Shown: piece by piece, positions 1-12,797 of the stretch
Layout of the letters: each line of letters begins with the position of its first letter
Numbering within the stretch: the stretch's first letter is position 1
Assembly: GCA_964535465.1 (NCBI GenBank)
Contig: CAZHUY010000001.1
Coordinates: 1-62,129 of the forward strand
Direction: 5' to 3'
DNA length: 62,129 nt
Origin: an uncultured Myxococcales bacterium
Lineage (GTDB): Bacteria; Myxococcota_A; Polyangia; Fen-1088
Made by a program: the position numbers and the translations under genes
Notes under the pieces: generated by a model
The model's database searches: none
What the model was told of the DNA's origin: nothing
Seen by the model: the letters and a program-made list of their open reading frames with translations, nothing else

Positions 1-1
1 G

Positions 2-1564
2 CAGGGTCCAAGGCTCGGGGGCCGCGGGATCCATCACCAGTTGCAGCTCGGCCGGAGTCACGCAGGCGCCGTCGGTCCAGCCACACAAGGCCAGCGCGGA
101 CCGGCGCACGGCCGGATGCGCGCACAGATCCGCTTGCGCGGGCGACGAAGCGTACGCGACGTCCAGGGCAGCCTCTCCCGGTCGCGCGCGTTCTTCCGCC
201 TCAGCCAGCTCCGCCAGCGTGTCGGTCATGGGCTGACCAAGGGCAGCGGCGAAGCGGCCCCAAGTCGCGCCGGCCGGGGCATGCAACCCCAACAGCCAAT
301 CCGTACCCGCCGCGGCTCGTGCGGGCTCGCGCGCCGGGGACAAAAAGAGCTCGAAGCTGGCGGGCAGTCCCTGCTCGGGCAGGAGCCGCTCCAACGCCTC
401 AGGATCGAGATCGATCTCGTGCCTTCCATGTGCCGCGGCCTGGGCCAGAGCGTCCGCTAGAAAAGCCAGGACATCGAGGTCGGGCGTCTGCCCGGATTTC
501 TCATCGGCCTTCTCCGCCAGGGCGCTGCCGAATCCCCCCGTGGCCAGCTCGGCCACGTCGAAAGCACCGGCGCCAAACAGCTCGACGAAGGTGTCCAACT
601 GCTCGGCCAGTCCGGCATCGCACAGTCGCTCAGCCGTCGGCCCCACCAGGGCCTCCTGCAATCGAAACAGCAACGGAGAGCAGGCCACCGCCCGTTCCGC
701 CGCCGCACGCGAGAGCCGTAGCGGATGGCGCGGACGATGCCTTAGGATCCCGGTCAGGTCGCTGCTCGAACGGCTGGCGCCGGGAAGATCGGCCAGCCGT
801 GACCGCGCATCGGTCACCGATTCGGCGGCGTCCAGGGCCAAACCTTGGCGAATGGGATCGACCAGGGGGGCGAGCACGTCTGGCAGAGCGGCAAGCCGCT
901 TGGTCATCCAGGTCGCACACGGCGGCCCCACCAGAGGCGGACAGAGATCGTGGGTCAGCACCCCGCGATCGACGAGGACCAAGAGCAGCTCGTCCGCCGA
1001 CTCCTCATCACCGGCGATGTCCAGCATGGCTTGCCCGAGCCGCGGCCACGGACACCACTGCCAAGCATGCTCGATGACGGTCGCGAGGACATCGTCGATC
1101 TCGCCGAAACGAACCTCCAAGCCGTCGCGCTCCAGCGCCAGCCACACCGCCTGCTCGCCCGCCGCCAACAGAGAAGGCACCACGCGCAGGCGCACGTGCG
1201 GCCGAAGTTCGGGCCACTCGAGCAGCTCGCGGCCAAGCGCGGCCACGCGCTCCCAAGTTGGGGCCAGTGCCGCCTCGACGAGGCCGGTTTCCATGCGGGT
1301 GCGCGCGCCCCATTGTCCCATGGCTACCCCTGCCAGCAGCCCCGCCGGGGTGGGACGAAAGGCCGCGCGACGGGCGTAGCGAGACAACGAGGCCGACGCG
1401 TCCGTCTGTCCGCGTTCCAGCGCCGCGGCCAGATCCGGGCTGGCCAATTGGATCGCGGCCGATCCCAAGGGATGCCGTTGCAGGGCCGCCGCCGCCCGGG
1501 GCAGCTCGCGCACGGGCAAGAGCGGCGCGCGCACGAGGAAGCGTGAGAGCAGGTGCAAAGCCAT
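2..1564 (-). CDS. LanB-type lantibiotic dehydratase family protein, N-terminal 521 codons only (continues beyond left edge)
   Basis: Open minus-strand frame from the ATG at 1564 to the window edge. All tta/cta/tca triplets on the + strand were checked and none falls in this frame. It is missing from the ORF track only because no stop lies in the window. The product MALHLLSRFLVRAPLLPVRELP... and ...SRYARRAAFRPTPAGLLAGVAMG... carries the N-terminal signature motifs of Lant_dehydr_N proteins. Confidence 0.7.
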   Translation of the reverse strand, partial: MALHLLSRFLVRAPLLPVRELPRAAAALQRHPLGSAAIQLASPDLAAALERGQTDASASLSRYARRAAFRPTPAGLLAGVAMGQWGARTRMETGLVEAALAPTWERVAALGRELLEWPELRPHVRLRVVPSLLAAGEQAVWLALERDGLEVRFGEIDDVLATVIEHAWQWCPWPRLGQAMLDIAGDEESADELLLVLVDRGVLTHDLCPPLVGPPCATWMTKRLAALPDVLAPLVDPIRQGLALDAAESVTDARSRLADLPGASRSSSDLTGILRHRPRHPLRLSRAAAERAVACSPLLFRLQEALVGPTAERLCDAGLAEQLDTFVELFGAGAFDVAELATGGFGSALAEKADEKSGQTPDLDVLAFLADALAQAAAHGRHEIDLDPEALERLLPEQGLPASFELFLSPAREPARAAAGTDWLLGLHAPAGATWGRFAAALGQPMTDTLAELAEAEERARPGEAALDVAYASSPAQADLCAHPAVRRSALALCGWTDGACVTPAELQLVMDPAAPEPWTL

Positions 1565-1571
1565 CGCGGTC

Positions 1572-2789
1572 TCAGGCCAAGATGTGATCGAGCAGGCGGC
1601 ACAGGGCAGCCAGTCGTACGCCACCGCGACCGGCTCCGCAGGGCTCGGGCTCGGGGATCTGCATGCGTGGCAGGCAGTCCTCGGGGGTGCCGGTGCGCTT
1701 CTTCAAGATGGCGCACGCCACGGTGTGGGCATCGAAGCGCGGCTTGGGCAGCTCGAGACCTTCGGCCGCCAGCGTGTTGCCGGGGAAATGCCCCCAGGTC
1801 ACCACCACGTCGCTCGGGCGCAGGAAGGCCTGCCATCTGGCCGCGAAGGAGTCCCAGGTTTCGCCGGAAAGCAGAGCGGTACTGCCGATGCGAATGTGGA
1901 AAGGCGTCGTGGGTGCCAAGGGATGGCGGGGGGCGATGACCGCCTCGAAGACCTCGCCGGTACTGGGCCGTCGGGCCAGCCAGTGCACGATCTCGGCCGC
2001 ATGGCGCACGGGCGCGTGGCGCGGCCAGGTGTTGGCCTCGCCATGAACGCACAGGATGTCGGTCTGGCGCTCGCGCAGAGTCGGCGGGATGGGACTGCGC
2101 GCCGGCCGGTTGTTACGCCGTGAATGCAGGCGATGGCGACTGCCCGGACTGGCGGCCACGTAGCGCAATTGCGATTCGACCATGGCGTGAAAGGGTCGCA
2201 GCATCGATTGAAAACGCTCGCGATCCCCTTCCAGGGCTCCCAGCACATGGGCCAGAGCCTCGATCGTGGCCGTGCAATGGAAGGCCGGCTCGCGCCGGAT
2301 GGGGTTGTAGGCGCTGGCCACGGCCGGCGTGAAACGCAGCTGCGGCAGTTGCATGAGCGCTGGATTGGCCTTGAGCAAGCGCTGCGCCTGTCCCCAAGTA
2401 CCGTCCACCAGAATCAAGGTCATGGGCGTGCCGGGAGGAACGGACTCCACGTCGCGCGCGTTGGGTCCGGGATAGATGACGTGCGCCTGCCCGCTGGCCA
2501 GCACGGCCTGCACCACCTGATCCTCGGAGAAATCGATCCCGACGCGCACGACGGCGTTGGGGAGGCACAGACGGGCGATGCGCACCGTCCCCACGCCCAC
2601 GTCGCGCTCGCGCGGGTGCTGCAGGATGATCACCCGCGTGCGGGTTTGCAGAGGCACGATGTGCGCGCAATAGCAGACGCTGACCGGACGCCAACAACGC
2701 GGGCACAGCTCGCGGGGCGCGGGTTCTTGCGCGGGGGTGACCAGGGCCTTGGGGGAAACGGACGGCGGCACGGGCAAGCCATAGTACAC
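1572..2789 (-). CDS. DTW-domain protein (tRNA acp-transferase fold) with ~200-aa C-terminal degenerate DnaQ-like extension
   Basis: 405-aa ORF. The N-terminal half has the DTW family signatures CPRCWRPVSVCYC, ILQHPRE and LILVDGTWGQA. The C-terminal half (ILCVHGEANTW ... VVVTWGHFPGN ... GGVRLAALCRLL) follows exonuclease-like motif order with the catalytic residues replaced (by eye). The stop at 1572-1574 is 7 nt upstream of the LanB ATG. Confidence 0.75.
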   Translation of the reverse strand: MYYGLPVPPSVSPKALVTPAQEPAPRELCPRCWRPVSVCYCAHIVPLQTRTRVIILQHPRERDVGVGTVRIARLCLPNAVVRVGIDFSEDQVVQAVLASGQAHVIYPGPNARDVESVPPGTPMTLILVDGTWGQAQRLLKANPALMQLPQLRFTPAVASAYNPIRREPAFHCTATIEALAHVLGALEGDRERFQSMLRPFHAMVESQLRYVAASPGSRHRLHSRRNNRPARSPIPPTLRERQTDILCVHGEANTWPRHAPVRHAAEIVHWLARRPSTGEVFEAVIAPRHPLAPTTPFHIRIGSTALLSGETWDSFAARWQAFLRPSDVVVTWGHFPGNTLAAEGLELPKPRFDAHTVACAILKKRTGTPEDCLPRMQIPEPEPCGAGRGGVRLAALCRLLDHILA

Positions 2790-2826: not shown

Positions 2827-3630
2827 GTGGTGAATTCGCTCTGCTGGTTTGTCGGTGCGCTGCTGGCCTCGTCCACCAGCGCGGCTCAATCGAAAGTCAC
2901 GACCTACGCGACGCCCGCGGCGGCGGTGCAGGCGCTCCTGGCCAGTCGTCCGCGCATGGTGGCGTTCGGCGAGTACCACCAACAGAAGAAGACAGCCAAG
3001 ATCCCCTCGGCGCTCAAGCGCTTCACCAGCGATATCCTCCCGGTGCTGGTCACGCATGGCGCGAGCGATCTGGTTGCCGAGACATGGATCACCACCGGAT
3101 CGTGCGGCGAGGAGGAGAAGAAGGCGGTGCTGCAAGTCAACGAGTCCACGCGCCGGCCGGCGCAGACCGAGGATGAGCTGGTCACCATGCTCCGCCGAAG
3201 CAAGGACGGCGGACTGCAACCCCGCATCCTGCAGATCACCTGCCAGGACTATCGGGCCATGATGGGGAATGGGGGCATGGACTACGATCGCCTGCTGCGC
3301 GTCACCCGCGATCAGTTGGAGACGCAGATACGCGCGGCCCTGGGCCGCCCCGAGAGCCACATGGTGGTCAGCTACGGCGGCGCACTGCACAACGATCGCG
3401 AGCCCTCAGCCGAACTATCGCCCTACGCCTTCGGCCCGGCCATTGCCCTCGCGGTCGGCGATCGTTATCTGGAGATCGATCTGTACGTGCCCGAATACAT
3501 CGCCAAGGACAAATCCATCCAAGCCCAGCCCTGGTACCGGCAGTACCGCGCGGCTTACCGGCCTGGTCACACCACCGTGGTCAGACGGGGACCGAATTCG
3601 TACGCGCTCATCTTCCCGCGCCGGAGGTAG
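2827..3630 (+). CDS. Secreted hypothetical protein, possible Tiki/ChaN/TraB-like fold
   Basis: 267-aa ORF with a GTG start and a signal-like N-terminus LCWFVGALLASSTSAAQS. The spacing FGEYHQQ ... LVAETW ... YGGALHND resembles the GxxH...E...H pattern of the Tiki/ChaN superfamily (by eye only). The start is uncertain because it lies only 37 bp from the divergent DTW gene. Confidence 0.55.
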   Translation: MVNSLCWFVGALLASSTSAAQSKVTTYATPAAAVQALLASRPRMVAFGEYHQQKKTAKIPSALKRFTSDILPVLVTHGASDLVAETWITTGSCGEEEKKAVLQVNESTRRPAQTEDELVTMLRRSKDGGLQPRILQITCQDYRAMMGNGGMDYDRLLRVTRDQLETQIRAALGRPESHMVVSYGGALHNDREPSAELSPYAFGPAIALAVGDRYLEIDLYVPEYIAKDKSIQAQPWYRQYRAAYRPGHTTVVRRGPNSYALIFPRRR

Positions 3631-5010
3631 TTAGCCGGGTCGGCGCAGGACCGCCGCGAAGAAGCCATCGGTGCCATGGCGGTGCGGGAAGACCTTGAGG
3701 AACGTGCCGTCGCCCAGGCGCCCTGCCCTCTCCTTGCCCCAGACGTCCTTCAACGGCATCAGGACGAAATCGGGACGTTCGGCCAGGAAACGCTCGACCA
3801 CGCCCTCGTTCTCCTGCCTCATGATGGTGCAGGTCGCATAAATCAAGCGACCGCCGGGCGCGACCAGGGGCGCGTAGGTCACCATCAGCGAGAGCTGCTG
3901 CGCGGGAAAGCTGTCGATGGTCTTGGCATCCAGACGCCAGCGCGCCTCGGGGTTGCGGCGCAAGGTCCCCATGCCCGAGCAGGGCGCGTCGACCAGCACG
4001 CGATCCCAACCGCCCAGCCTGGCCTCGCTGGGCCACTCGCTCCCCCGCACCTCGCGCGCCGCCACGTTGGACAGGCCCGCACGTCGCGCCCGCCGTCGCA
4101 GCTCTTCCAGTTTCTTCCCATTGGAATCGAGCGCCAGGATGCGGCCCTGCCCGTCGAGCAGCGCCGCCAGCGCCAGGGTCTTGCCCCCCGCGCCCGCGCA
4201 CGCGTCCACCACGCGGCCGCGCGGCGGCGGGGCCACGGTCTCAGCCACCAACTGACTGCCCTCGTCCATCACCTCGAACATGCCCTCGCGAAAGGCCGAC
4301 AACCCAAAGGCATTGACCCGGGTTTCGAAGACCAAACCCATGGGCGACAGCTCGGTGGGACTTGCCACCACGCCCTCTTCTTTCAAGCGCGCGATCAGCT
4401 CTTCGCGCGAGGCCTTGACCCCATTGGCCCGCACGGTCATCGGTGCCCGCTCATTCATGGCCGCGGTCAGGGCCAGCGCTTCCTCCTCGCCCAGATCATT
4501 CACCAGACGTTCGAGCATCCAGGTGGGGAACGACACACGCACGGCCTGCCGATCCAGGCCGGTGGTCTTGCCCAACCCTGCCTCCTCGTCGGTCGCCTTG
4601 CCCAGATCCACGTCCTTGCGCAGGATGCGGCGAACCTCGGCCTTGACCGCCTCGGCCGGCAAACCTTGTCGCAGCTCATAGACGATCAGCTTCAGCTCTT
4701 GCCGGGCCGAGGGCGAGAGCGCGTCCTGGGGGCCACGTCCCTGGGCCGCGGCGACCAACTCATCGACCACCGCCTGCAGCCGTCTCTCCCAGCGCACCAG
4801 ACCATAGACGGTTTCGGAGATCAGCCGTCGATCGCCGCTGCCCAACTGCCGATTGGCGCGAAATGTGGACGCCAGAATGTCGGTCAAGAATCCCCATTCC
4901 GAGGCGGCCTCGGCCACGATCTGCAGGGTCAGGGCACGCGCCTGGCCTGTCAGACGACGCACCGGCGTGCTGACCTGGACGGGATGATCGGAATCGTGGG
5001 AGTGGCTCAC
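3631..5010 (-). CDS. rsmB: 16S rRNA (cytosine-C5)-methyltransferase RsmB/Sun family
   Basis: 459-aa ORF with a NusB-like N-terminus followed by SAM methyltransferase motifs VVDACAGAGGKTLALAAL, DRVLVDAPCSGMGTLRRNPEARW and IYATCTIMRQENE. Confidence 0.9.
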   Translation of the reverse strand: MSHSHDSDHPVQVSTPVRRLTGQARALTLQIVAEAASEWGFLTDILASTFRANRQLGSGDRRLISETVYGLVRWERRLQAVVDELVAAAQGRGPQDALSPSARQELKLIVYELRQGLPAEAVKAEVRRILRKDVDLGKATDEEAGLGKTTGLDRQAVRVSFPTWMLERLVNDLGEEEALALTAAMNERAPMTVRANGVKASREELIARLKEEGVVASPTELSPMGLVFETRVNAFGLSAFREGMFEVMDEGSQLVAETVAPPPRGRVVDACAGAGGKTLALAALLDGQGRILALDSNGKKLEELRRRARRAGLSNVAAREVRGSEWPSEARLGGWDRVLVDAPCSGMGTLRRNPEARWRLDAKTIDSFPAQQLSLMVTYAPLVAPGGRLIYATCTIMRQENEGVVERFLAERPDFVLMPLKDVWGKERAGRLGDGTFLKVFPHRHGTDGFFAAVLRRPG

Positions 5011-5061
5011 GGGGCCACCTTATAGTGGGTGCCTGGGCGTGGGGCAACCCGCTGCTTCGAA

Positions 5062-5436
5062 TCAGCCCAGCTTGGCCTTGATGGTGCGCAACAGGGCCTC
5101 GAAGTTGACCGGCTTCTGAAAAACCGCGTCCAACCCCATCTCGCGGGTGCTGGTGGACACCGTCAGGGAATCGCCGAGCGAGCTCAAGAGGAGAACCGGT
5201 GCGGTGTTCCCCGCCAATTTCAATTCCTTGACCAGGCCGGTGCCCGAGTCGATCTCCTCCATCATCAGGTCCACGATGATCAGGTCTGGTCCGCTGGCCT
5301 TGAACTTCTTCAGGCCCTCCTCAGCCGAGAGCGCCGTCTCGGCGAGGTAACCGGCCTTGTTCAGGCGGAGGCGCAGGGCCTCTAGAATGTCCCCATCATC
5401 GTCCACGCACAGGATCAGGTACTTTCCGTCTTTCAT
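5062..5436 (-). CDS. Receiver-only (CheY-like) response regulator
   Basis: 124-aa ORF with ILCVDDDGDILE ... DLIIVDLMM ... PVLLLSS receiver motifs and no output domain. Its ATG lies 3 nt after the hoxW stop. Confidence 0.85.
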   Translation of the reverse strand: MKDGKYLILCVDDDGDILEALRLRLNKAGYLAETALSAEEGLKKFKASGPDLIIVDLMMEEIDSGTGLVKELKLAGNTAPVLLLSSLGDSLTVSTSTREMGLDAVFQKPVNFEALLRTIKAKLG

Positions 5437-5439
5437 GGC

Positions 5440-5952
5440 CTAGGCCTCTGGCTGGGGATCGCAGCCGCAGCGGCGATCGACATCATACTCCCTCGTATAC
5501 TCATCGAACCGGCGTTCCTTGAGCGCGTGTCTGGCGAAGGTCAGTGCGCTGGCGAGATTGGCCTGCGCGGCCTCGGACAGCGTCTCGCACATCTCGCCGA
5601 AGGCATAACCGCGAATCCCCAAGGTGAAGGCCCGGGTCTTCGCACCGAACATCTGCTGCGCCAGCGCCAACACCTGCCCCGGGGTGGCGCTGTGACTCGA
5701 AAAGCTCATCTCTCGGGCCGGCTCGACCCGGCTGAAGCGAAAGGGAGCAGGCCCCTTCATGTCGGCGTCGACGAAGATGACCACCTCATACCCGGCCAAG
5801 GTCGCGGAATCCTCGACGGAGAGTTGGTAGTCGGATTCGTAAACCACGCCCTCTACGCCCGCGTCCTCCAGGGCCGAAACCAACCTTGGTCCCAGGCCAT
5901 CGTCACCGCGGCCGAGATTGCCGTAACCATAGAAAAGGATCGGCCTGGTCAT
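5440..5952 (-). CDS. hoxW: Hydrogenase maturation (C-terminal processing) protease
   Basis: 170-aa ORF with GYGNLGRGDDGLGPRLV and FVDA motifs of HycI/HoxW endopeptidases. Its start overlaps the hoxH stop (ATGA at 5949-5952). Confidence 0.85.
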   Translation of the reverse strand: MTRPILFYGYGNLGRGDDGLGPRLVSALEDAGVEGVVYESDYQLSVEDSATLAGYEVVIFVDADMKGPAPFRFSRVEPAREMSFSSHSATPGQVLALAQQMFGAKTRAFTLGIRGYAFGEMCETLSEAAQANLASALTFARHALKERRFDEYTREYDVDRRCGCDPQPEA

Positions 5953-7382
5953 CCGCGACTCATCTCATGAAGGATCTGGCCCTGGTGGTCAACCAGGGTC
6001 ACATCCAGCGCCATCTGTCCCAAAGCATGCGTCGCGCATGACAGGCACGGATCGTAGGCGCGAATCGCCACCTCGATGTGATTCAAGAGCCCTTCGGTGA
6101 TCTCCTTGCCCGTAAGATGGTCCTGCGCCACCTTGGCCACCGCGCGGTTCATGGGCTCGTTGTTGTTGGTGGTGGAGACGATCAGGTTGGCCATCACGAC
6201 CTGATCGTTCTTGTCCACCTTGTAATGATGGAAGAGCGTCCCGCGCGGCGCCTCGATGAGGCCCACGCCCTCCTCGCGACGCTCGCCCTTGGTCACCAGG
6301 TCCGCGCCCTGCAGATCCTTGTCGTTGAGCAGCTCCTGGATCTTCTCGATGGCATGCAGCAGCTCGATCATGCGCGCCCAGTGGTAGGCCATGGTGATGT
6401 TGTTGGGCTTGCCCCCGGTGACCGCGCGAAATTCCCGGCGGGCGGCCTCGGCCAGCGGGGTATCGATGAAGTCCGCGGTGTTCAAACGCGCCAGCGGCCC
6501 CACCCGGTACCAGCCGTCCTTGGGTCCTATCTTGCGGATGAAGGGGAACTTCATGTACGACCAGTCGCGCACCTCTTCGGCGATGAACTCGACGTATTTC
6601 TGGTAGTCGATCTGGTCGAAGATGGTTGCGCCCTGGCTGTCCACGGCGCGCAGGTTGCCGTGGTAAAGGTCCATGGCGCCGTCCTCGCGCACCAGCGAGA
6701 GGTGATTCGAATCGAAGGAGCCGAAGGGCGCCAGCTCCTGCAGGTGACTCGTGGTGTAGTCGCGCGCGATGTGCACCGCCGACTTGGCCCACGTCATCTG
6801 CTGGTCGAGCTCCTTCAGGAAAGCATCGCGCTCTTCCAGACTGAGGTTCTTGTTCACCCCGCCGGGGATGGCGCCGGTGCCGTGGATCTTCTTGCCCGCG
6901 GTGGCCTTGATGATCTCCTGCCCGTACTTGCGCATCATCACCGCCTGGACGGCCAGGTCCGGGTACTTGCCGGCCACGCCGATCACGTTGCGAATCGCCA
7001 CCGGCGCATCGAAGCCGAACAGCAGATCGGGCGACGCCAGGTGGAAGAAGTGCAAGGCGTGCGACTGGTACATCTGCCCGTAGTGCATCAGGCGCCGTAC
7101 CTTCTCCGCCGTGGGGGTCAGGCGTGTCGCGCCCACGATCACATCCATGGCCTTGGCCGCAGCCAGGTGATGGCTGACCGGGCAGATGCCACACAAGCGC
7201 TGGACCAGCACCGGTATCTCCCAGAATAGACGACCTTGTATGAACCGCTCGAAGCCGCGGAACTCGACAATGTGCAAGCGCGCCTGCACGACTCTGCCGC
7301 TCTCGTCGAGCAAGATGGTGACCTTCCCGTGTCCCTCGACGCGGGTAACCGGCTCGATGACAACTCGTTTCACGACGCTCAC
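5949..7382 (-). CDS. hoxH: [NiFe]-hydrogenase large subunit, NAD-linked bidirectional type
   Basis: 477-aa ORF with the N-terminal RVEGHGKV and RLCGICPVSH motif and the C-terminal DPCLSCATH Ni-Fe ligand motif. A ~24-aa tail follows, of the kind removed by HoxW. Confidence 0.95.
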   Translation of the reverse strand: MSVVKRVVIEPVTRVEGHGKVTILLDESGRVVQARLHIVEFRGFERFIQGRLFWEIPVLVQRLCGICPVSHHLAAAKAMDVIVGATRLTPTAEKVRRLMHYGQMYQSHALHFFHLASPDLLFGFDAPVAIRNVIGVAGKYPDLAVQAVMMRKYGQEIIKATAGKKIHGTGAIPGGVNKNLSLEERDAFLKELDQQMTWAKSAVHIARDYTTSHLQELAPFGSFDSNHLSLVREDGAMDLYHGNLRAVDSQGATIFDQIDYQKYVEFIAEEVRDWSYMKFPFIRKIGPKDGWYRVGPLARLNTADFIDTPLAEAARREFRAVTGGKPNNITMAYHWARMIELLHAIEKIQELLNDKDLQGADLVTKGERREEGVGLIEAPRGTLFHHYKVDKNDQVVMANLIVSTTNNNEPMNRAVAKVAQDHLTGKEITEGLLNHIEVAIRAYDPCLSCATHALGQMALDVTLVDHQGQILHEMSRG

Positions 7383-7403
7383 GTCACACTCCTTGGCAGA
7401 AGG

Positions 7404-7952
7404 TCAGTCGTACTTGATCAGCCCATAAGGCAGCTTCACCGGCTTGCTGGTCAGCAGAGCCACCAGCGCCTCCCACAATGTGTCCGCCGAGGGCGGGCAT
7501 CCCGGCAGAGAGTAGTCGACCTTCACCACTTCATGGCAGGGATAGACCTTGTCGAGGAGCAGGGGCAGCTCCGGATCGTTGGGAATCTTGCGGCTCGGAT
7601 TGTAGACGGTGGGACCGTCGAGATAGGCCTCGTGCAGGCACTCGCGCACCGGGATCCAATTGCGCATACCCGGCAATCCGCCCATGGTCGCGCATTCCCC
7701 GACGACCACCAGAGTGTCGCAGTTTTTGCGGAAGCTCTGCAAGACGTGCACGTTCTCCTCGTTACAGCAACCACCCTCAATCAAACCAACCGCACAACGG
7801 TCAGTGAACTGTTTGATGTCGTTGATGGGGGATTTGTCGAAGTCCACCAGCTCAACCAGCTTCAAAATGCGCTCATCGATGTCCAGCAGCGACATGTGAC
7901 ATCCGAAACAACCGGCCAGGGAGACCGTGGCCACCTTGGGTTTGCCGCTCAT
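7404..7952 (-). CDS. hoxY: [NiFe]-hydrogenase small subunit (HoxY type)
   Basis: 182-aa ORF starting MSGKPKVATVSLAGCFGCHMSLLD, with further Cys clusters typical of the short group-3 small subunits. Its start overlaps the hoxU stop (ATGA). Confidence 0.9.
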   Translation of the reverse strand: MSGKPKVATVSLAGCFGCHMSLLDIDERILKLVELVDFDKSPINDIKQFTDRCAVGLIEGGCCNEENVHVLQSFRKNCDTLVVVGECATMGGLPGMRNWIPVRECLHEAYLDGPTVYNPSRKIPNDPELPLLLDKVYPCHEVVKVDYSLPGCPPSADTLWEALVALLTSKPVKLPYGLIKYD

Positions 7953-8680
7953 CGGGCCCCTCCTGTCTCGCTGTTCTTGCCGTGCTTTTCAATCTCGGAT
8001 CCGATGGGCTCCTTGTCGAAGGCTCGCTGGCCCACGGGCGTCGCGAAGCCCACGCGCTTCTTCATCAGGGCCCCGACGGGACAGATCGCACTCGCCATGT
8101 CCGTGACCGCGGCGTCGGTGCCCGCCAGCCCCGCGGCAGAATTCGCGGCCACCCGCTTGTGGGCCCCGCGCCCCCCGAACCCATACACATGCTTGCCGTC
8201 CAGCTCCTGCGAGGCGCGCACGCAGCGCGCGCACAGAATGCAGCGGTTGCGATCCAGGAAGATGTCGGGATGGCTGGCGTCCACCTCACGCAGCGGGAAG
8301 AAGTAGGGATACCGTGGGGCCAGCATGCCTAGGCGATACCCCATGGCCTGCAGCTCGCAGTTGCCGCTTTTCTCGCAGGTTGGGCACAGGTGGTTTCCCT
8401 CCACGAACAACATCTCGATCAGCTCACGTCGCATGCGGTGCAGAGTGTCCGTGTCATTCTCGATGACCATGCCCTCCGCGATGGGTTGTATGCATGCGGC
8501 TTGGGGACGTCCGTTGACCAACACGGTACAGACTCGACAACTACCCCAGGGGGAGAGGCCGCGCTTGGCGCACAGGTGGGGGATGTAGATTCCGGCCAAC
8601 GCCGCTGCCTGGAGGATGGTTTGTCCCGCCTGCCCCTGCACCTCGACGCCGTCGATGGTGATGGTGATGGTGCCACTCAT
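7949..8680 (-). CDS. hoxU: Diaphorase iron-sulfur subunit HoxU (NuoG-like N-terminal module)
   Basis: Start chosen at MSGTITITIDG (8680), 10 nt after the hoxF stop. The 42-aa N-terminal extension in the track would overlap hoxF. The product has a 2Fe-2S motif CAKRGLSPWGSCRVC...C and 4Fe-4S motifs CPTCEKSGNCELQ and CILCARCVRA. Confidence 0.9.
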   Translation of the reverse strand: MSGTITITIDGVEVQGQAGQTILQAAALAGIYIPHLCAKRGLSPWGSCRVCTVLVNGRPQAACIQPIAEGMVIENDTDTLHRMRRELIEMLFVEGNHLCPTCEKSGNCELQAMGYRLGMLAPRYPYFFPLREVDASHPDIFLDRNRCILCARCVRASQELDGKHVYGFGGRGAHKRVAANSAAGLAGTDAAVTDMASAICPVGALMKKRVGFATPVGQRAFDKEPIGSEIEKHGKNSETGGAR

Positions 8681-8690
8681 GATGTCCCTC

Positions 8691-10517
8691 TCACTTCCCG
8701 AAGTGAACGGACCGGCGTTGCGCCAGGGTTTCCGCCTGTGCCACAGCCGCGGACCCGTCGAAGGTGGGCAGCAGATCCGCCGCGGCTGGCTTGACCCGAC
8801 GTTCATACTCCGACCGGAAGGATCGCAGAGTGGTCAACACCGGCTGCGGTGAAGTCTGCCCCAAACCACACCGACTGGTCGCCTTGATGGTTTCGGCCAG
8901 CCCTTGCAGATACGCAAGGTCCTCGGGGCTGGCCTGGCCGCCAATCACCTTGCCCAGTCGTTCGTGCAATAGACGATTTCCCACGCGGCACGGGGTGCAA
9001 TAGCCGCAGCTCTCCTCGCAGAAGAACTCCATGAAGGCCTCGGCCACGCGTAGCACGTCCCGCCTGTGGTCGAAGACCATGATCGCGCCGCCCGTCGCCA
9101 AATCATCGAAACGCAAGCTTCGGCCGAAATCGCCAGGCGCGATCATCTGGCCCGAGGCGCCCCCCACCTGAACCGCCGCGGTCTCATGCGCGCCCACCAT
9201 GGACAGGAGCTCGTTCACCTTCACGCCAAAGGGCAATTCGTAAATGCCGGGGCGGTCGCAGTCGCCCGAGACGCTGTACAGCTTGGTGCCGGTGCTGTCG
9301 TTGGTGCCGATCGAGCTGAACCAACCCGGACCGTTTTCCAGGATGCGGGCCACGCAACAGAAGGTCTCGACGTTGTTGATGACCGTGGGCCGCCCCAGAT
9401 AGCCTGATTGAGCCGGAAAGGGTGGGCGGTTCTTGGGATCGCCGCGCTTGCCCTCGCACGAGCTGAGCAACGCCGTCTCTTCCCCGCAGATGTACGCCCC
9501 CGCCCCCATCTGGATGCGGATATCGAAATCGAACCCCTGTTTCCCCTGGATGCTTCGCCCCAATAGTCCCACCTCACGCCGCTCGTCGAGGATCTTCTCC
9601 AAGAAGGGCAAGAGATAGACATACTCGCCCCGCAGGTACACGATGCCCTCGGCCGCCCCCACCCCGTAGCCGGCGATGGTCATGCCCTCGAAGACCAAAT
9701 CCGCCGCCTCGGTCAGTATCACTCTGTCCTTGAAGGTGCCGGGCTCGCCCTCATCGGCGTTGCACACGATGGTCTTCTTCTCGCCGGCGGCGGCGCGAGC
9801 GAATTCCCACTTCATTCCGGTCGGGAACCCGGCACCGCCGCGCCCCCGCAGGCGTGAGACCTTGATGCTCTTGATGACCTCGGCCGGACTCTCGGCCAGG
9901 GCCTTGCGCAGGGCCGCGCCGCGCGCCAGCGGCGCGAAGACCACCGGTCCACGCTCGCGCAGGTTGTTCCTGACCATCGAGCGCACCAACGGATGGCTGT
10001 TGTTGCCATCGCCCAGGGTCAGGTTGAGGTGCTCGAGGTTGCCGGTCTTGCGCAGATCCGCGACAAGCTCGCGGGCACCATCGCCGGACAGACTCGTGAT
10101 GACACGATCATTGATGAGCGCGGCCGGAGCCTGATCGCTCATCCCTATGCATGGCGTGTGCTCGAGCGTGAACATGCCGTCCGCCGTGGTCTGGCCGAAA
10201 TCGATGCCCAGCTCTTGGCGCAAGGCCCGTCCCACGCGTTCGGCGCCATGCATTCGATCGATGATGTCGTTGCACAGGCGGATCACGAACTTGCCCCGAG
10301 GCCGGCTGGTGAGGAACGCGTAGAACGAGAGCGTGCTCTCCACCTCGACGCGAGGCACGCGCAAGGTCTGTGCGATGACGTCGACCGCCGAACCCAAGAC
10401 ACCGCCCAGGCGCTGATGCACTTCGAGCAGGATGTCCATCAAGCGGGTCCGCTCGTTGGCGAAGCGTCCGCAGATCCCTCGGATGACATCGTCCTGATTC
10501 TCAGCCATGTCGTTCAT
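8691..10517 (-). CDS. hoxF: Diaphorase NAD(P)H/FMN subunit HoxF (NuoE-like + NuoF-like fusion)
   Basis: GRGGAGFPTGMKWEF (NuoF FMN/NADH site), CGEETALL and CGYCTPCRVG (4Fe-4S), preceded by a NuoE-like thioredoxin-fold module. Start is taken at MNDMAENQ (10517); the ATG at 10508 is equally possible and the track start 10586 looks like an extension. Confidence 0.9.
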   Translation of the reverse strand: MNDMAENQDDVIRGICGRFANERTRLMDILLEVHQRLGGVLGSAVDVIAQTLRVPRVEVESTLSFYAFLTSRPRGKFVIRLCNDIIDRMHGAERVGRALRQELGIDFGQTTADGMFTLEHTPCIGMSDQAPAALINDRVITSLSGDGARELVADLRKTGNLEHLNLTLGDGNNSHPLVRSMVRNNLRERGPVVFAPLARGAALRKALAESPAEVIKSIKVSRLRGRGGAGFPTGMKWEFARAAAGEKKTIVCNADEGEPGTFKDRVILTEAADLVFEGMTIAGYGVGAAEGIVYLRGEYVYLLPFLEKILDERREVGLLGRSIQGKQGFDFDIRIQMGAGAYICGEETALLSSCEGKRGDPKNRPPFPAQSGYLGRPTVINNVETFCCVARILENGPGWFSSIGTNDSTGTKLYSVSGDCDRPGIYELPFGVKVNELLSMVGAHETAAVQVGGASGQMIAPGDFGRSLRFDDLATGGAIMVFDHRRDVLRVAEAFMEFFCEESCGYCTPCRVGNRLLHERLGKVIGGQASPEDLAYLQGLAETIKATSRCGLGQTSPQPVLTTLRSFRSEYERRVKPAAADLLPTFDGSAAVAQAETLAQRRSVHFGK

Positions 10518-10587
10518 CCTCTTCCGCAGACACAACTCCGAGCCGCCTCGCCACGAAAGCTCAAGCCCACCCCGACCAGAATCCACC

Positions 10588-11029: not shown

Positions 11030-11787
11030 AGGACGAAAGGCAGGACCGCTCTCCGCGACCGTGGATAGTCGGGGAAAGTCGCACGGTACCAGGCGCGATG
11101 CTTGAGGGCCCGAGGCACCAGGTTGGCCGCACTCCACAGCACGAAGACCAGTCCGGGCCACGACATCGTAGCCAGCGCCCAACCTGACCACTCGATCAAT
11201 TCGCCCAGGTAGTTGGGACACGAAACCAGGCGAAACAGGGGCCCGCGCGGCACACCATAGCGGCCGGCTGATTCTCGACGTACCCGGCGCAATTCGCGAT
11301 CGGCCGAGACGTGGATGCAGAAGCCGAGCACGAAGAGCACCGTCCCGACGATGAAGAATCCGCTGGTCAGCCACTCGATGGATCGCGGCTGTGAAAGCGA
11401 GAACAACCAGCGACCATTCATCCCGCCGTTGACCACGTTGAATAACGCGCCCGACATCATGATCAGCGCCGGCATGGGCCGACTGCTCGAGGGCAGCAGA
11501 AAGGAGAAGATGAACGTCCTATAAATGTAGTGCCCGAGCCACAGACACAGAAAGACGATGGCGACGACGTTGTCGCGGCGATCGCCCAGATAGAACATGA
11601 TGACCATCAGCGCGGGCGAAGGCAGCTCCATCAGGATCCACGCCAGCCGCGCCCGCACGGTCGGCCCCCAACCGGGCCGCCCATGACGGCCATAGGGGGC
11701 TGGTCGCAAGAGCAGATAGGGAAACACGGCCACCGCCACCGCGATCCAGGCCACCATCAACCAGGTGAACAGACGCGCCTCGTTCAT
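11026..11787 (-). CDS. 3-oxo-5-alpha-steroid 4-dehydrogenase (steroid 5-alpha-reductase) family membrane protein
   Basis: Start at MNEARLF (11787), overlapping the upstream SDR stop (ATGA). Polytopic membrane protein with the C-terminal family motif GPLFRLVSCPNYLGELIEWSGWAL. Confidence 0.8.
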   Translation of the reverse strand: MNEARLFTWLMVAWIAVAVAVFPYLLLRPAPYGRHGRPGWGPTVRARLAWILMELPSPALMVIMFYLGDRRDNVVAIVFLCLWLGHYIYRTFIFSFLLPSSSRPMPALIMMSGALFNVVNGGMNGRWLFSLSQPRSIEWLTSGFFIVGTVLFVLGFCIHVSADRELRRVRRESAGRYGVPRGPLFRLVSCPNYLGELIEWSGWALATMSWPGLVFVLWSAANLVPRALKHRAWYRATFPDYPRSRRAVLPFVL

Positions 11788-12797
11788 GGCAGCCGACCGT
11801 TCTGCTTGAACCACCCATAGGTGTCGCGCAGGGTCTCTTCCAGGGGCCGCGGGCTGTGTCCCAGTTCGCTCTGGGCCCGGGCGCCGCTGATGTTTCGATG
11901 GTTGCGCAACACGCGTAGCGAATCCGAGGTGAAGAGCGGACGCCGACGCATGACCCGCGCCCAGGCGACCGCAAAGGGCGCGGCCGCCCGAGCCAAGCCC
12001 ATGGGCACCACCCAGCGCGGGATCCTCGCCCCCGAAACCTCGCCCCACAGTCGCGCCAGATCGACCAGCGACAGCCAGTGGCCCGACAGCAAGTAGTGCT
12101 CGCCCGTGCGACCGAGACGCTCGGCCTGCAACGCCGACTTGACCACGTCGCGCACGTCAACCCAGTTGAAACCAGCGCCGCTGATCAGGGCCAGGAGGCG
12201 ACCTCGGTGCAGATCCAGCAGGACTTGCCCCATGGCCGAAGGCTGGAAGTCGTTCGGCCCGAGCGCGGCGGTGGGATTCACGATCACCGCGTCCAAGCCG
12301 CGCGCCACCCCCTCCGCGACCACGCGCTCGCCCTCGGCCTTGGTCCGGTCGTAAATGAGATTCGCCGGCTGGTCCTCGGTCAACGAACGCTGCTCATCGA
12401 TGGTGCCGCCGACCGGGTCAGAGGCAAAGGCGTGAATCGAGCTGAAGTGCACCAGGCGTCCGACCCGGTTGGCCAGACAAGCCTCGACCACGTTACGGGT
12501 GCCGTTCACGTTCACCCCCTGGACCCTGGGGGCCGAATCCCAGCCCACGGAGATGCATGCGGCCAGGTGATACACGACCGAGGCACCTTCCAGGGCGCGC
12601 TGGCAAGCCTGGGCGTCGGTGATGTCGCAACGGACGGTGTCGACAGGCAGACCTTCGATGCTCGCGGTGTGCTGGCGCACCACGGCGCGCACCGACCGGC
12701 CTTGGTCCAAGAGACTGCGCACCAGGTTGGCGCCGATGTGGCCGGCGGCACCGGTGACCACGACCAGTCCATCGTGAGCATCTGGGGGAACGGGCAT
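11784..12797 (-). CDS. NAD-dependent epimerase/dehydratase (extended SDR, 3beta-HSD/DFR-like)
   Basis: 337-aa ORF with the Rossmann motif VVVTGAAGHIGANLVRSLL and a YxxxK region (YDRTKAEGE). Confidence 0.85.
   Translation of the reverse strand: MPVPPDAHDGLVVVTGAAGHIGANLVRSLLDQGRSVRAVVRQHTASIEGLPVDTVRCDITDAQACQRALEGASVVYHLAACISVGWDSAPRVQGVNVNGTRNVVEACLANRVGRLVHFSSIHAFASDPVGGTIDEQRSLTEDQPANLIYDRTKAEGERVVAEGVARGLDAVIVNPTAALGPNDFQPSAMGQVLLDLHRGRLLALISGAGFNWVDVRDVVKSALQAERLGRTGEHYLLSGHWLSLVDLARLWGEVSGARIPRWVVPMGLARAAAPFAVAWARVMRRRPLFTSDSLRVLRNHRNISGARAQSELGHSPRPLEETLRDTYGWFKQNGRLP

Follow-up and report, generated by a model that had tools for sequence, protein, structure and literature searches.

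The window analysed here is a stretch of 62,129 nucleotides from contig CAZHUY010000001.1 of an uncultured Myxococcales bacterium (assembly GCA_964535465.1). Its first part carries, on the minus strand, a gene for a two-domain protein that joins a DTW domain to an exonuclease-like domain, followed downstream by a gene for a LanB-type dehydratase. The open reading frame (ORF) of the two-domain protein occupies positions 1572..2789, beginning with GTG at 2789 and ending with a TGA stop codon at 1574-1572, and encodes 405 amino acids. A spacer of 7 nucleotides (nt; 1565..1571, minus strand) separates its stop codon from the ATG of the LanB gene at 1564. The LanB gene (1..1564, minus strand) is cut by the window edge: its N-terminal 521 amino acids (aa) are present and match Lant_dehydr_N (E = 1.3e-35), and the reading frame continues past the window start. 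An earlier note on this DNA, made from the window alone (the original prediction), had given the 405-aa ORF, its coordinates and the 7-nt distance between stop codon and ATG, all of which were correct on re-reading. The peptide strings quoted there were all found in the protein: CPRCWRPVSVCYC at residues 29-41, ILQHPRE at 55-61, LILVDGTWGQA at 125-135, ILCVHGEAN at 245-253, VVVTWGHFPGN at 328-338 and GGVRLAALCRLL at 389-400. The window protein is without an exact-sequence record, and relatives were used to see past the window edge. A scan for sigma-70 promoters and terminators around the gene revealed neither a promoter-like site around the DTW gene nor a terminator-like site between the DTW and LanB genes; such a scan is uninformative for a Myxococcota genome of ~67% G+C. 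Neither the DTW protein nor the LanB fragment nor the ORF upstream had a match in NCBIfam, and a PADLOC scan for a role in a defence system gave zero matches as well.

Residues 26-208 (2166..2714, minus strand) form a DTW domain like that of TapT, an S-adenosylmethionine (SAM)-dependent aminocarboxypropyl transferase. The match to Pfam PF03942 (E = 8.5e-46) scored 156.6 bits against a cut-off of 33.7, covered profile positions 1-195 of 195 and is far beyond chance, confirming the canonical DTW domain that had been proposed for the first ~200 residues. E. coli TapT (9kyt) was the only meaningful sequence match of the protein in the PDB (phmmer, E = 3.5e-12). An AlphaFold model of the full-length protein had a mean predicted local distance difference test score (pLDDT) of 86.4 and a predicted template-modelling score (pTM) of 0.50, values that together indicate two confident domains of uncertain mutual orientation. 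The best PDB matches of this model in Foldseek were the TapT structures 9kz5, 9kyt and 9kza (E = 1.7e-8; target-normalised template-modelling (TM) scores of 0.64-0.72, and of 0.70-0.72 for 9kz5 and 9kyt), and by these matches the model shares the overall SPOUT-like alpha/beta fold of TapT-type DTW enzymes.

The zinc- and SAM-binding residues of TapT were then located in the window protein. The zinc-finger motif C29-x2-C32-x6-C39-x-C41 (2667..2705, minus strand) aligns with TapT C31/C34/C41/C43, the zinc ligands seen in the crystal structure (PMC12630136). D129-G-T-W132 (2394..2405, minus strand) is the D/E-x-T/S-W motif of the TDD superfamily and aligns with TapT D137 and W140, mutants of which lose SAM binding and activity (PMC12630136). 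Mutation of the SAM-binding residues of TapT, namely P111, D137, W140 and T182, abolishes or strongly reduces activity (PMC12630136). The phmmer alignment matched P111, D137 and W140 to P107, D129 and W132 of the window protein; it paired T182 with T173, and by eye T175-x-E177 fits T182-x-E184 better. When 32 family members were aligned, D129, G130, T131 and W132 were invariant, as were P107, T175 and E177, and C41 was nearly invariant. Part of the basic Patch2 of TapT is retained as well, with R137 and K140 in place of TapT K145 and R148. With the SAM and zinc residues of TapT retained, the DTW domain looks catalytically competent.

The DTW domain is followed by a basic linker (residues 209-243; 2061..2165, minus strand; RYVAASPGSRHRLHSRRNNRPARSPIPPTLRERQT) with a net charge of +8 and a pI of ~12. 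It is partly disordered in the full-length model, with pLDDT < 50 at residues 215-225, and the median linker charge across the family is +7. The remainder of the protein (residues 244-405; 1575..2060, minus strand) is a degenerate DnaQ-like (DEDD, RNase H fold) 3'-5' exonuclease domain, an assignment that comes from AlphaFold2 modelling, Foldseek and profile searches; Pfam and NCBIfam revealed nothing in this C-terminal half. A model of residues 209-405, built from a 32-sequence alignment, reached a mean pLDDT of 90.9 and a pTM of 0.84, and its topology (b1-b2-b3-a-b4-a-b5-a) follows the order of RNase H-like exonucleases. Foldseek returned 72 PDB matches to this model at E <= 0.001, and the best 50 were almost all DEDD 3'-5' exonucleases, including ERI2 (7n8v, E = 2.6e-7), Pol III epsilon (2ido, target-normalised TM score 0.75), 3'hExo, RNase T, the exonuclease domains of PolC and DinG, TREX1 and TREX2. 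A profile of 33 C-terminal domains reached the PolC exonuclease domain (2p1j, E = 0.0044), with Cas2-DEDDh and epsilon just below, and 4 of the 33 family members gave a weak match to Pfam RNase_T. The DnaQ-like order of motifs, originally read by eye, is thus backed by the model, by Foldseek and by the profile match to PolC, and the structure-prediction check proposed for the C-terminal half yielded the DEDD exonuclease fold that had been anticipated.

The catalytic positions of the exonuclease fold were assigned separately. The motifs of the C-terminal domain family are GEANAW, E-x-V-H-W, D-x4-W-G, D-x-R and G-R-x-G-x-R. Alignment of the family with Pol III epsilon by hhalign was partial (probability 23%, E = 8.8e-4) and was used only for the register of Exo II and strand 5, and the independent HMMER alignment to 2p1j gives the same register; the epsilon reference sequence was checked against 1j53. 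Both alignments place P336 at the Exo II Asp (epsilon D103), in a column without a conserved acid. Exo I and Exo III were placed from motif order and the secondary structure of the model. The D-x-E of Exo I reads H249-G-E251; position 249 is H, Q, L, V, A or Y across the family, and E251, at the position of the Exo I Glu, is nearly invariant and is apparently the sole catalytic residue kept of five. The last helix starts with G387-R-G-G-x-R392 (GRxGxR) and contains no conserved His or Asp. The Exo III motif was covered by no alignment, and its His/Asp is very likely lost, with the exact register inferred. Strand-5 D129 of epsilon, which is not among the five catalytic residues and which we take to be a structural rather than a catalytic Asp, corresponds to the nearly invariant D353. 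With apparently one of the five DEDDh residues left, two-metal hydrolysis is not expected. The substitutions noticed in the original prediction therefore hold up, four of the five DEDDh residues being apparently absent or variable and E251 being kept, and this loss of catalytic residues supports its reading of the degenerate domain as probably binding only. Residues that are invariant in the dead nuclease domain are N253, W255, W270, R274, E279, D327, W332, G333 and G387, and the family alignment showed the domain to be rich in invariant Arg and Trp residues.

A protein search with an E-value limit of 0.001 yielded 468 homologues, and relatives of the protein bear the labels Myxococcales, Polyangia or Planctomycetes; among the best 120, most cover ~87-100% of the query, with a few fragments, at 49-88% identity. 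In a scan of one genome per species, the best 80 of at least 552 matching stretches were taken as species loci (these and the further loci mentioned below are designated L001 and upwards). Both domains are present in all 80; a few have other labels, and the rest are labelled Myxococcales, Polyangia or Polyangiaceae. Searching 1.84 billion representatives with the C-terminal domain gave 377 clusters at 50% identity. Full-length proteins in these clusters have 350-430 aa and carry the domain at residues ~200-390. A stand-alone form of the C-terminal domain was considered and rejected: the short entries have their start at a Met inside the last helix of the DTW domain and are therefore cut gene calls. 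The dead nuclease domain hence occurs essentially only as part of the DTW fusion.

Burroughs and Aravind (2014) reported DTW proteins of delta-proteobacteria and planctomycetes that carry an inactive 3'-5' exonuclease domain as a fusion partner, and proposed that this domain binds RNA (PMC4275035). The fusion has accordingly been in print since 2014, and the window gene is a further member of a family described by computation. The enzymology of DTW proteins was later settled as transfer of the 3-amino-3-carboxypropyl (acp) group, not RNA cleavage (PMC6895100, PMC7026641). An association with tRNA genes was also reported in 2014 for DTWD2 genes. Beside the fusion gene we found no tRNA gene in the window and one tRNA-Met in 45 loci; the DTWD2-type association does not hold for the DTW-exonuclease subfamily.

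These results suggest that the window gene probably encodes a housekeeping TapT-like tRNA acp3U transferase with an RNA-binding appendage, and that its adjacency to LanB is a lineage-specific synteny. The DTW domain would bind SAM and attach its acp group at N3 of a uridine in tRNA, producing acp3U. By analogy, the target uridine is probably U47 in the variable loop, a default guess made because the nearest characterized relative is a bacterial U47 enzyme. To bind tRNA, E. coli TapT depends on two basic patches, and mutation of Patch1 (R16/R19/R24/R27) abolishes its activity (PMC12630136). Residues 1-28 of the window protein contain no counterpart of Patch1. Given this absence and the net charge of +8 on the linker, we infer that the linker and the dead nuclease domain supply the tRNA grip: together they would form an RNA-binding module that may replace the N-terminal arginine patch of E. 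coli TapT, and the vestigial nucleotide-binding cleft may serve the same grip. The DTW and LanB genes are probably co-transcribed within their clade, with products that would be functionally independent.

To see how far the adjacency with LanB extends, the neighbourhood survey suggested in the original prediction was carried out. The LanB fragment of the window was used as a tblastn query, which is sensitive enough to find a 42%-identical LanB at E = 1e-95. LanB lies downstream of the DTW gene in only four of the 80 species loci, L001-L004, which are the four with a DTW protein at least 68% identical to that of the window; the other 76 have no LanB within 10 kb. Looked at from the side of LanB, 22 metagenome loci carry a LanB that is 62-65% identical, and the DTW gene is just upstream in 17 of them. 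The remaining five comprise L107, with a truncated DTW gene, L093 and L109, which are identical and without DTW, and two that are too short to judge. The fusion gene was found in none of the 58 loci with a LanB of <= 49% identity, 36 of which have enough upstream DNA to judge. At intermediate identities, look-ups showed the pair with a 55%-identical LanB (L087) and not with a 57%-identical one (P0311). The survey thus located the adjacency in one clade, in which DTW proteins are 67-88% and LanB proteins 55-65% identical, and found no trace of it in 76 of the 80 DTW loci or in any of the 58 distant LanB loci. As the same fusion gene is present in all 80 loci, 76 of them without LanB within 10 kb, the proposal of a dedicated accessory to a LanB pathway did not survive.

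Within the clade, the junction between the two genes varies. It measures 7 nt in the window, ~11 nt in L002, 4 nt in L085 and 82 nt in L081, and the genes overlap by 4 nt in L082 and L087. In L001 (11216-11991), L105 (1483-2289) and L108, by contrast with these, ~0.8 kb of non-coding DNA with no convincing ORF lies between DTW and LanB. Co-transcription with LanB, which had been called almost certain, is plausible in the lineage, given spacings of -4 to 11 nt in several relatives. In L093 and L109, homology to L091 begins exactly at the LanB start. The ~2.4 kb upstream of LanB in these two loci (~3570-5990) contains one short ORF of 71 aa, as judged with thresholds of at least 70 aa and a third-position G+C content (GC3) of at least 0.78. 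In L107 (2951-4038) the last 77 DTW codons remain before LanB, preceded by ORFs without Pfam matches. The flank downstream of LanB is also syntenic in L081, L085 and L087, with genes for thioredoxin, an S1-domain protein, LPG_synthase_C, DUF1877 and DNA ligase, of which the thioredoxin gene is absent from L085. Because these flanking genes are syntenic too, shared descent explains the DTW-LanB adjacency; the simplest account is that the arrangement arose once, was then inherited and was occasionally disrupted.

A separate case of proximity was seen in L129, where a stand-alone DTW protein of 225 aa (11253-11930, minus strand) is encoded 2.1 kb from a 45%-identical LanB (5920-9150), on the opposite strand and with three ORFs in between. 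This protein (Pfam E = 1e-37) is 32% identical to the DTW domain of the window protein and is without the exonuclease-like domain. It is a single case and probably a coincidence.

The LanB gene itself has the marks of an orphan. Orthologues are full-length, with 982 aa in L001 and L081, and consist of Lant_dehydr_N and Lant_dehydr_C/thiopep_ocin; examples are at 11301-14249 in L081 and 8001-11066 in L088. Many LanB orthologues occur in Polyangia at 43-57% identity over 99% of their length, in unrelated gene contexts. The window ends inside LanB, and the check for other genes of pathways to ribosomally synthesized peptides that are modified post-translationally (RiPPs) was made on called genes and Pfam matches of relatives. 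No LanC, cyclase, YcaO, transporter or obvious precursor was present within 6-10 kb of LanB in L081, L082, L085, L087 and L088, so there is no recognizable RiPP locus to which the DTW gene could belong. A search for a precursor peptide downstream of LanB in L081 produced nothing convincing. A 'LanB only' gene was already listed for Haliangium ochraceum by Marsh et al. (2010; PMC3091789). The window LanB is not judged to be part of the function of the DTW gene; as a conserved stand-alone gene of Polyangia it is arguably more puzzling than the fusion.

Several points weigh against a housekeeping transferase beside LanB through synteny alone. Junctions in the clade are usually very tight (-4, -4, 4, 7 and 11 nt), and the pair persists while the upstream neighbour switches among a 267-aa protein, a tetratricopeptide repeat (TPR) protein and a pseudouridine synthase; tight spacing and a persistent pair are the pattern expected of a real operon. 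The substrate and its position are extrapolated, by analogy, from a homologue that is only 22-23% identical, and the NCBIfam search of the DTW protein returned no match at all. The set of invariant residues in the dead nuclease domain, moreover, could mean more than generic RNA binding. We infer the tRNA substrate and its position, the binding of RNA by the C-terminal half and the functional independence from LanB, and each of these has an alternative. The operon-like pattern would be accounted for if DTW and LanB were a functional pair, the fusion protein preparing, marking or holding the Glu-tRNAGlu consumed by the orphan LanB. LanB and TapT proteins both deal with tRNA, the two genes point the same way and meet at very short or overlapping junctions (of 7 nt in the window and 4 nt in L085, with 4-nt overlaps in L082 and L087), and the pair has been kept among DTW proteins of 67-88% and LanB proteins of 55-65% identity despite the changing upstream neighbour. 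Such a pairing is nevertheless very improbable: 76 of the 80 fusion loci lack LanB within 10 kb, the fusion is missing from all 58 distant LanB loci, and even in the clade the pair is split in L093 and L109, its DTW gene truncated in L107 and its members 0.8 kb apart in L001, L105 and L108. The region downstream is syntenic as well, so that shared descent suffices, and the LanB-adjacent DTW copies keep all family-invariant residues, with no sign of specialization. To our knowledge, acp3U47 has not been reported in tRNAGlu of E. coli.

The invariant residues of the C-terminal domain raise the question of a bifunctional enzyme, in which this domain would have a non-canonical activity such as one-metal or metal-independent trimming of tRNA 3' ends, or would catalyse some other reaction using the invariant E251, N253, D327 and D353. 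E251 does sit, nearly invariant, at the position of the Exo I Glu, and the invariant polar and aromatic set is dense over 35-88% identity, a stronger constraint than on many purely structural appendages. In the DEDD mechanism, however, both metal ions need catalytic carboxylates, and neither the Exo I Asp nor the Exo II Asp is conserved, while the His/Asp of Exo III is very likely lost; D353, for its part, falls at what we take to be the structural Asp position of epsilon D129 and not at a catalytic one. Burroughs and Aravind independently called the domain inactive (PMC4275035), and we regard a second activity as unlikely. Equally unlikely, in our estimate, is a different substrate for the DTW domain, be it another tRNA position, rRNA, a peptide or a small molecule instead of tRNA U47. 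Targets do vary within the TDD superfamily, where U47, U20, U20a and 18S rRNA are all modified (PMC6895100, PMC4275035), DTWD1 and DTWD2 acting at positions 20 and 20a and Tsr3 on rRNA. The identity of 22-23% to E. coli TapT, the lack of an NCBIfam equivalog match and the presence of rRNA/RNA modification enzymes (RsmB, pseudouridine synthase) among the lineage neighbours are compatible with such a change. Against it, among solved structures the bacterial tRNA U47 enzyme is the nearest relative in sequence as well as in fold, and the zinc finger and part of the TapT Patch2 are retained. We know of no precedent for DTW domains acting on peptides, and nothing was found in support of the earlier suggestion that the acp group might be passed to the peptide. 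A TapT-like tRNA transferase whose dead nuclease domain would bind RNA, and whose position next to LanB would be inherited, is the preferred reading.

The genes around the fusion were also surveyed. Clustering of ORFs was used to look for a conserved partner other than LanB, and this was rejected since even the most frequent neighbour families are confined to at most 13 of the 80 loci. Neighbours vary widely; a SWIM-SNF2 helicase, NDK and a small methyltransferase-like ORF each occur in a few loci. In eight loci of other clades, an ORF of 226-248 aa on the same strand ends ~6 nt before the fusion gene (L041 9312-9992, L029 9297-9995, L048 9294-9995 and five more); it has a weak SAM-methyltransferase motif near its C-terminus and may be a second RNA-modification partner. 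In another Polyangia clade, the fusion gene is followed immediately, on the same strand, by a gene for a SWIM-SNF2 helicase of ~1000 aa (L012 11149-14154, L038 11312-14269 and about seven other loci).

In the window, the neighbour upstream of the DTW gene is a divergent ORF of 267 aa (2827-3630, plus strand), 37 nt from the DTW start. Its N-terminus is hydrophobic, and Pfam, NCBIfam and PADLOC gave no match to it. It is kept near the DTW gene at 57-65% identity; L001-L003, L085 and L086 have it directly upstream, and in L082 and L087 it comes behind a pseudouridine synthase gene. Further along, the window contains an operon for a Hox-type NAD-linked [NiFe] hydrogenase (5440-10586, minus strand). 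It encodes, all on the minus strand, a large subunit (5949-7382; NiFeSe_Hases), a small subunit (7404-7952; Oxidored_q6), a 2Fe-2S/4Fe-4S subunit (7949-8806), a NuoF-like FMN subunit (8691-10586) and a 170-aa ORF without a Pfam match that may be a maturation protease (5440-5952).

A DTW-LanB operon would, if real, be the first tRNA-handling accessory of a LanB-type enzyme, and one outside a classical RiPP cluster. The association as proposed offers little, the architecture having been catalogued in 2014 and the adjacency having the look of inherited synteny. Compared with class I lanthipeptide, thiopeptide and peptide aminoacyl-tRNA ligase (PEARL) loci, the likeness consists of a full-length LanB downstream of the DTW gene; unlike them, the related loci examined have no LanC, cyclase, YcaO, transporter or visible precursor. 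The closest description in the literature is that of the DTWD2-exonuclease fusions of Burroughs and Aravind (2014; PMC4275035), which have the same architecture, come from the same taxa (delta-proteobacteria, now Myxococcota, and planctomycetes) and were given the same proposed RNA-binding role. That study predicted an RNase role for DTW, since replaced by acp transfer, and reported no LanB neighbour. With the DEDDh exonucleases (Pol III epsilon, RNase T, ERI2/3'hExo and the PolC domain), the C-terminal domain shares the fold, the strand order and the motif positions; it differs from them in apparently lacking four of the five catalytic residues (H249, P336 and the start of the GRxGxR helix mark the places), E251 being the one that remains.

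A further comparison is with E. coli TapT (YfiP/TuaA; 9kyt, 9kz5, 9kza), which has in common with the window protein the DTW domain, the CxxC...CxC zinc finger, the D-x-T-W motif, the adenine-stacking Pro, the T-x-E motif and the fold. TapT is a single-domain protein with an essential N-terminal patch, whereas the window protein, at ~22% identity, has a basic linker and a dead exonuclease domain of 160 residues. The fusion family offers a natural test of tRNA recognition by TapT-type enzymes, in which the arginine patch has seemingly been swapped for a linker and a dead nuclease.

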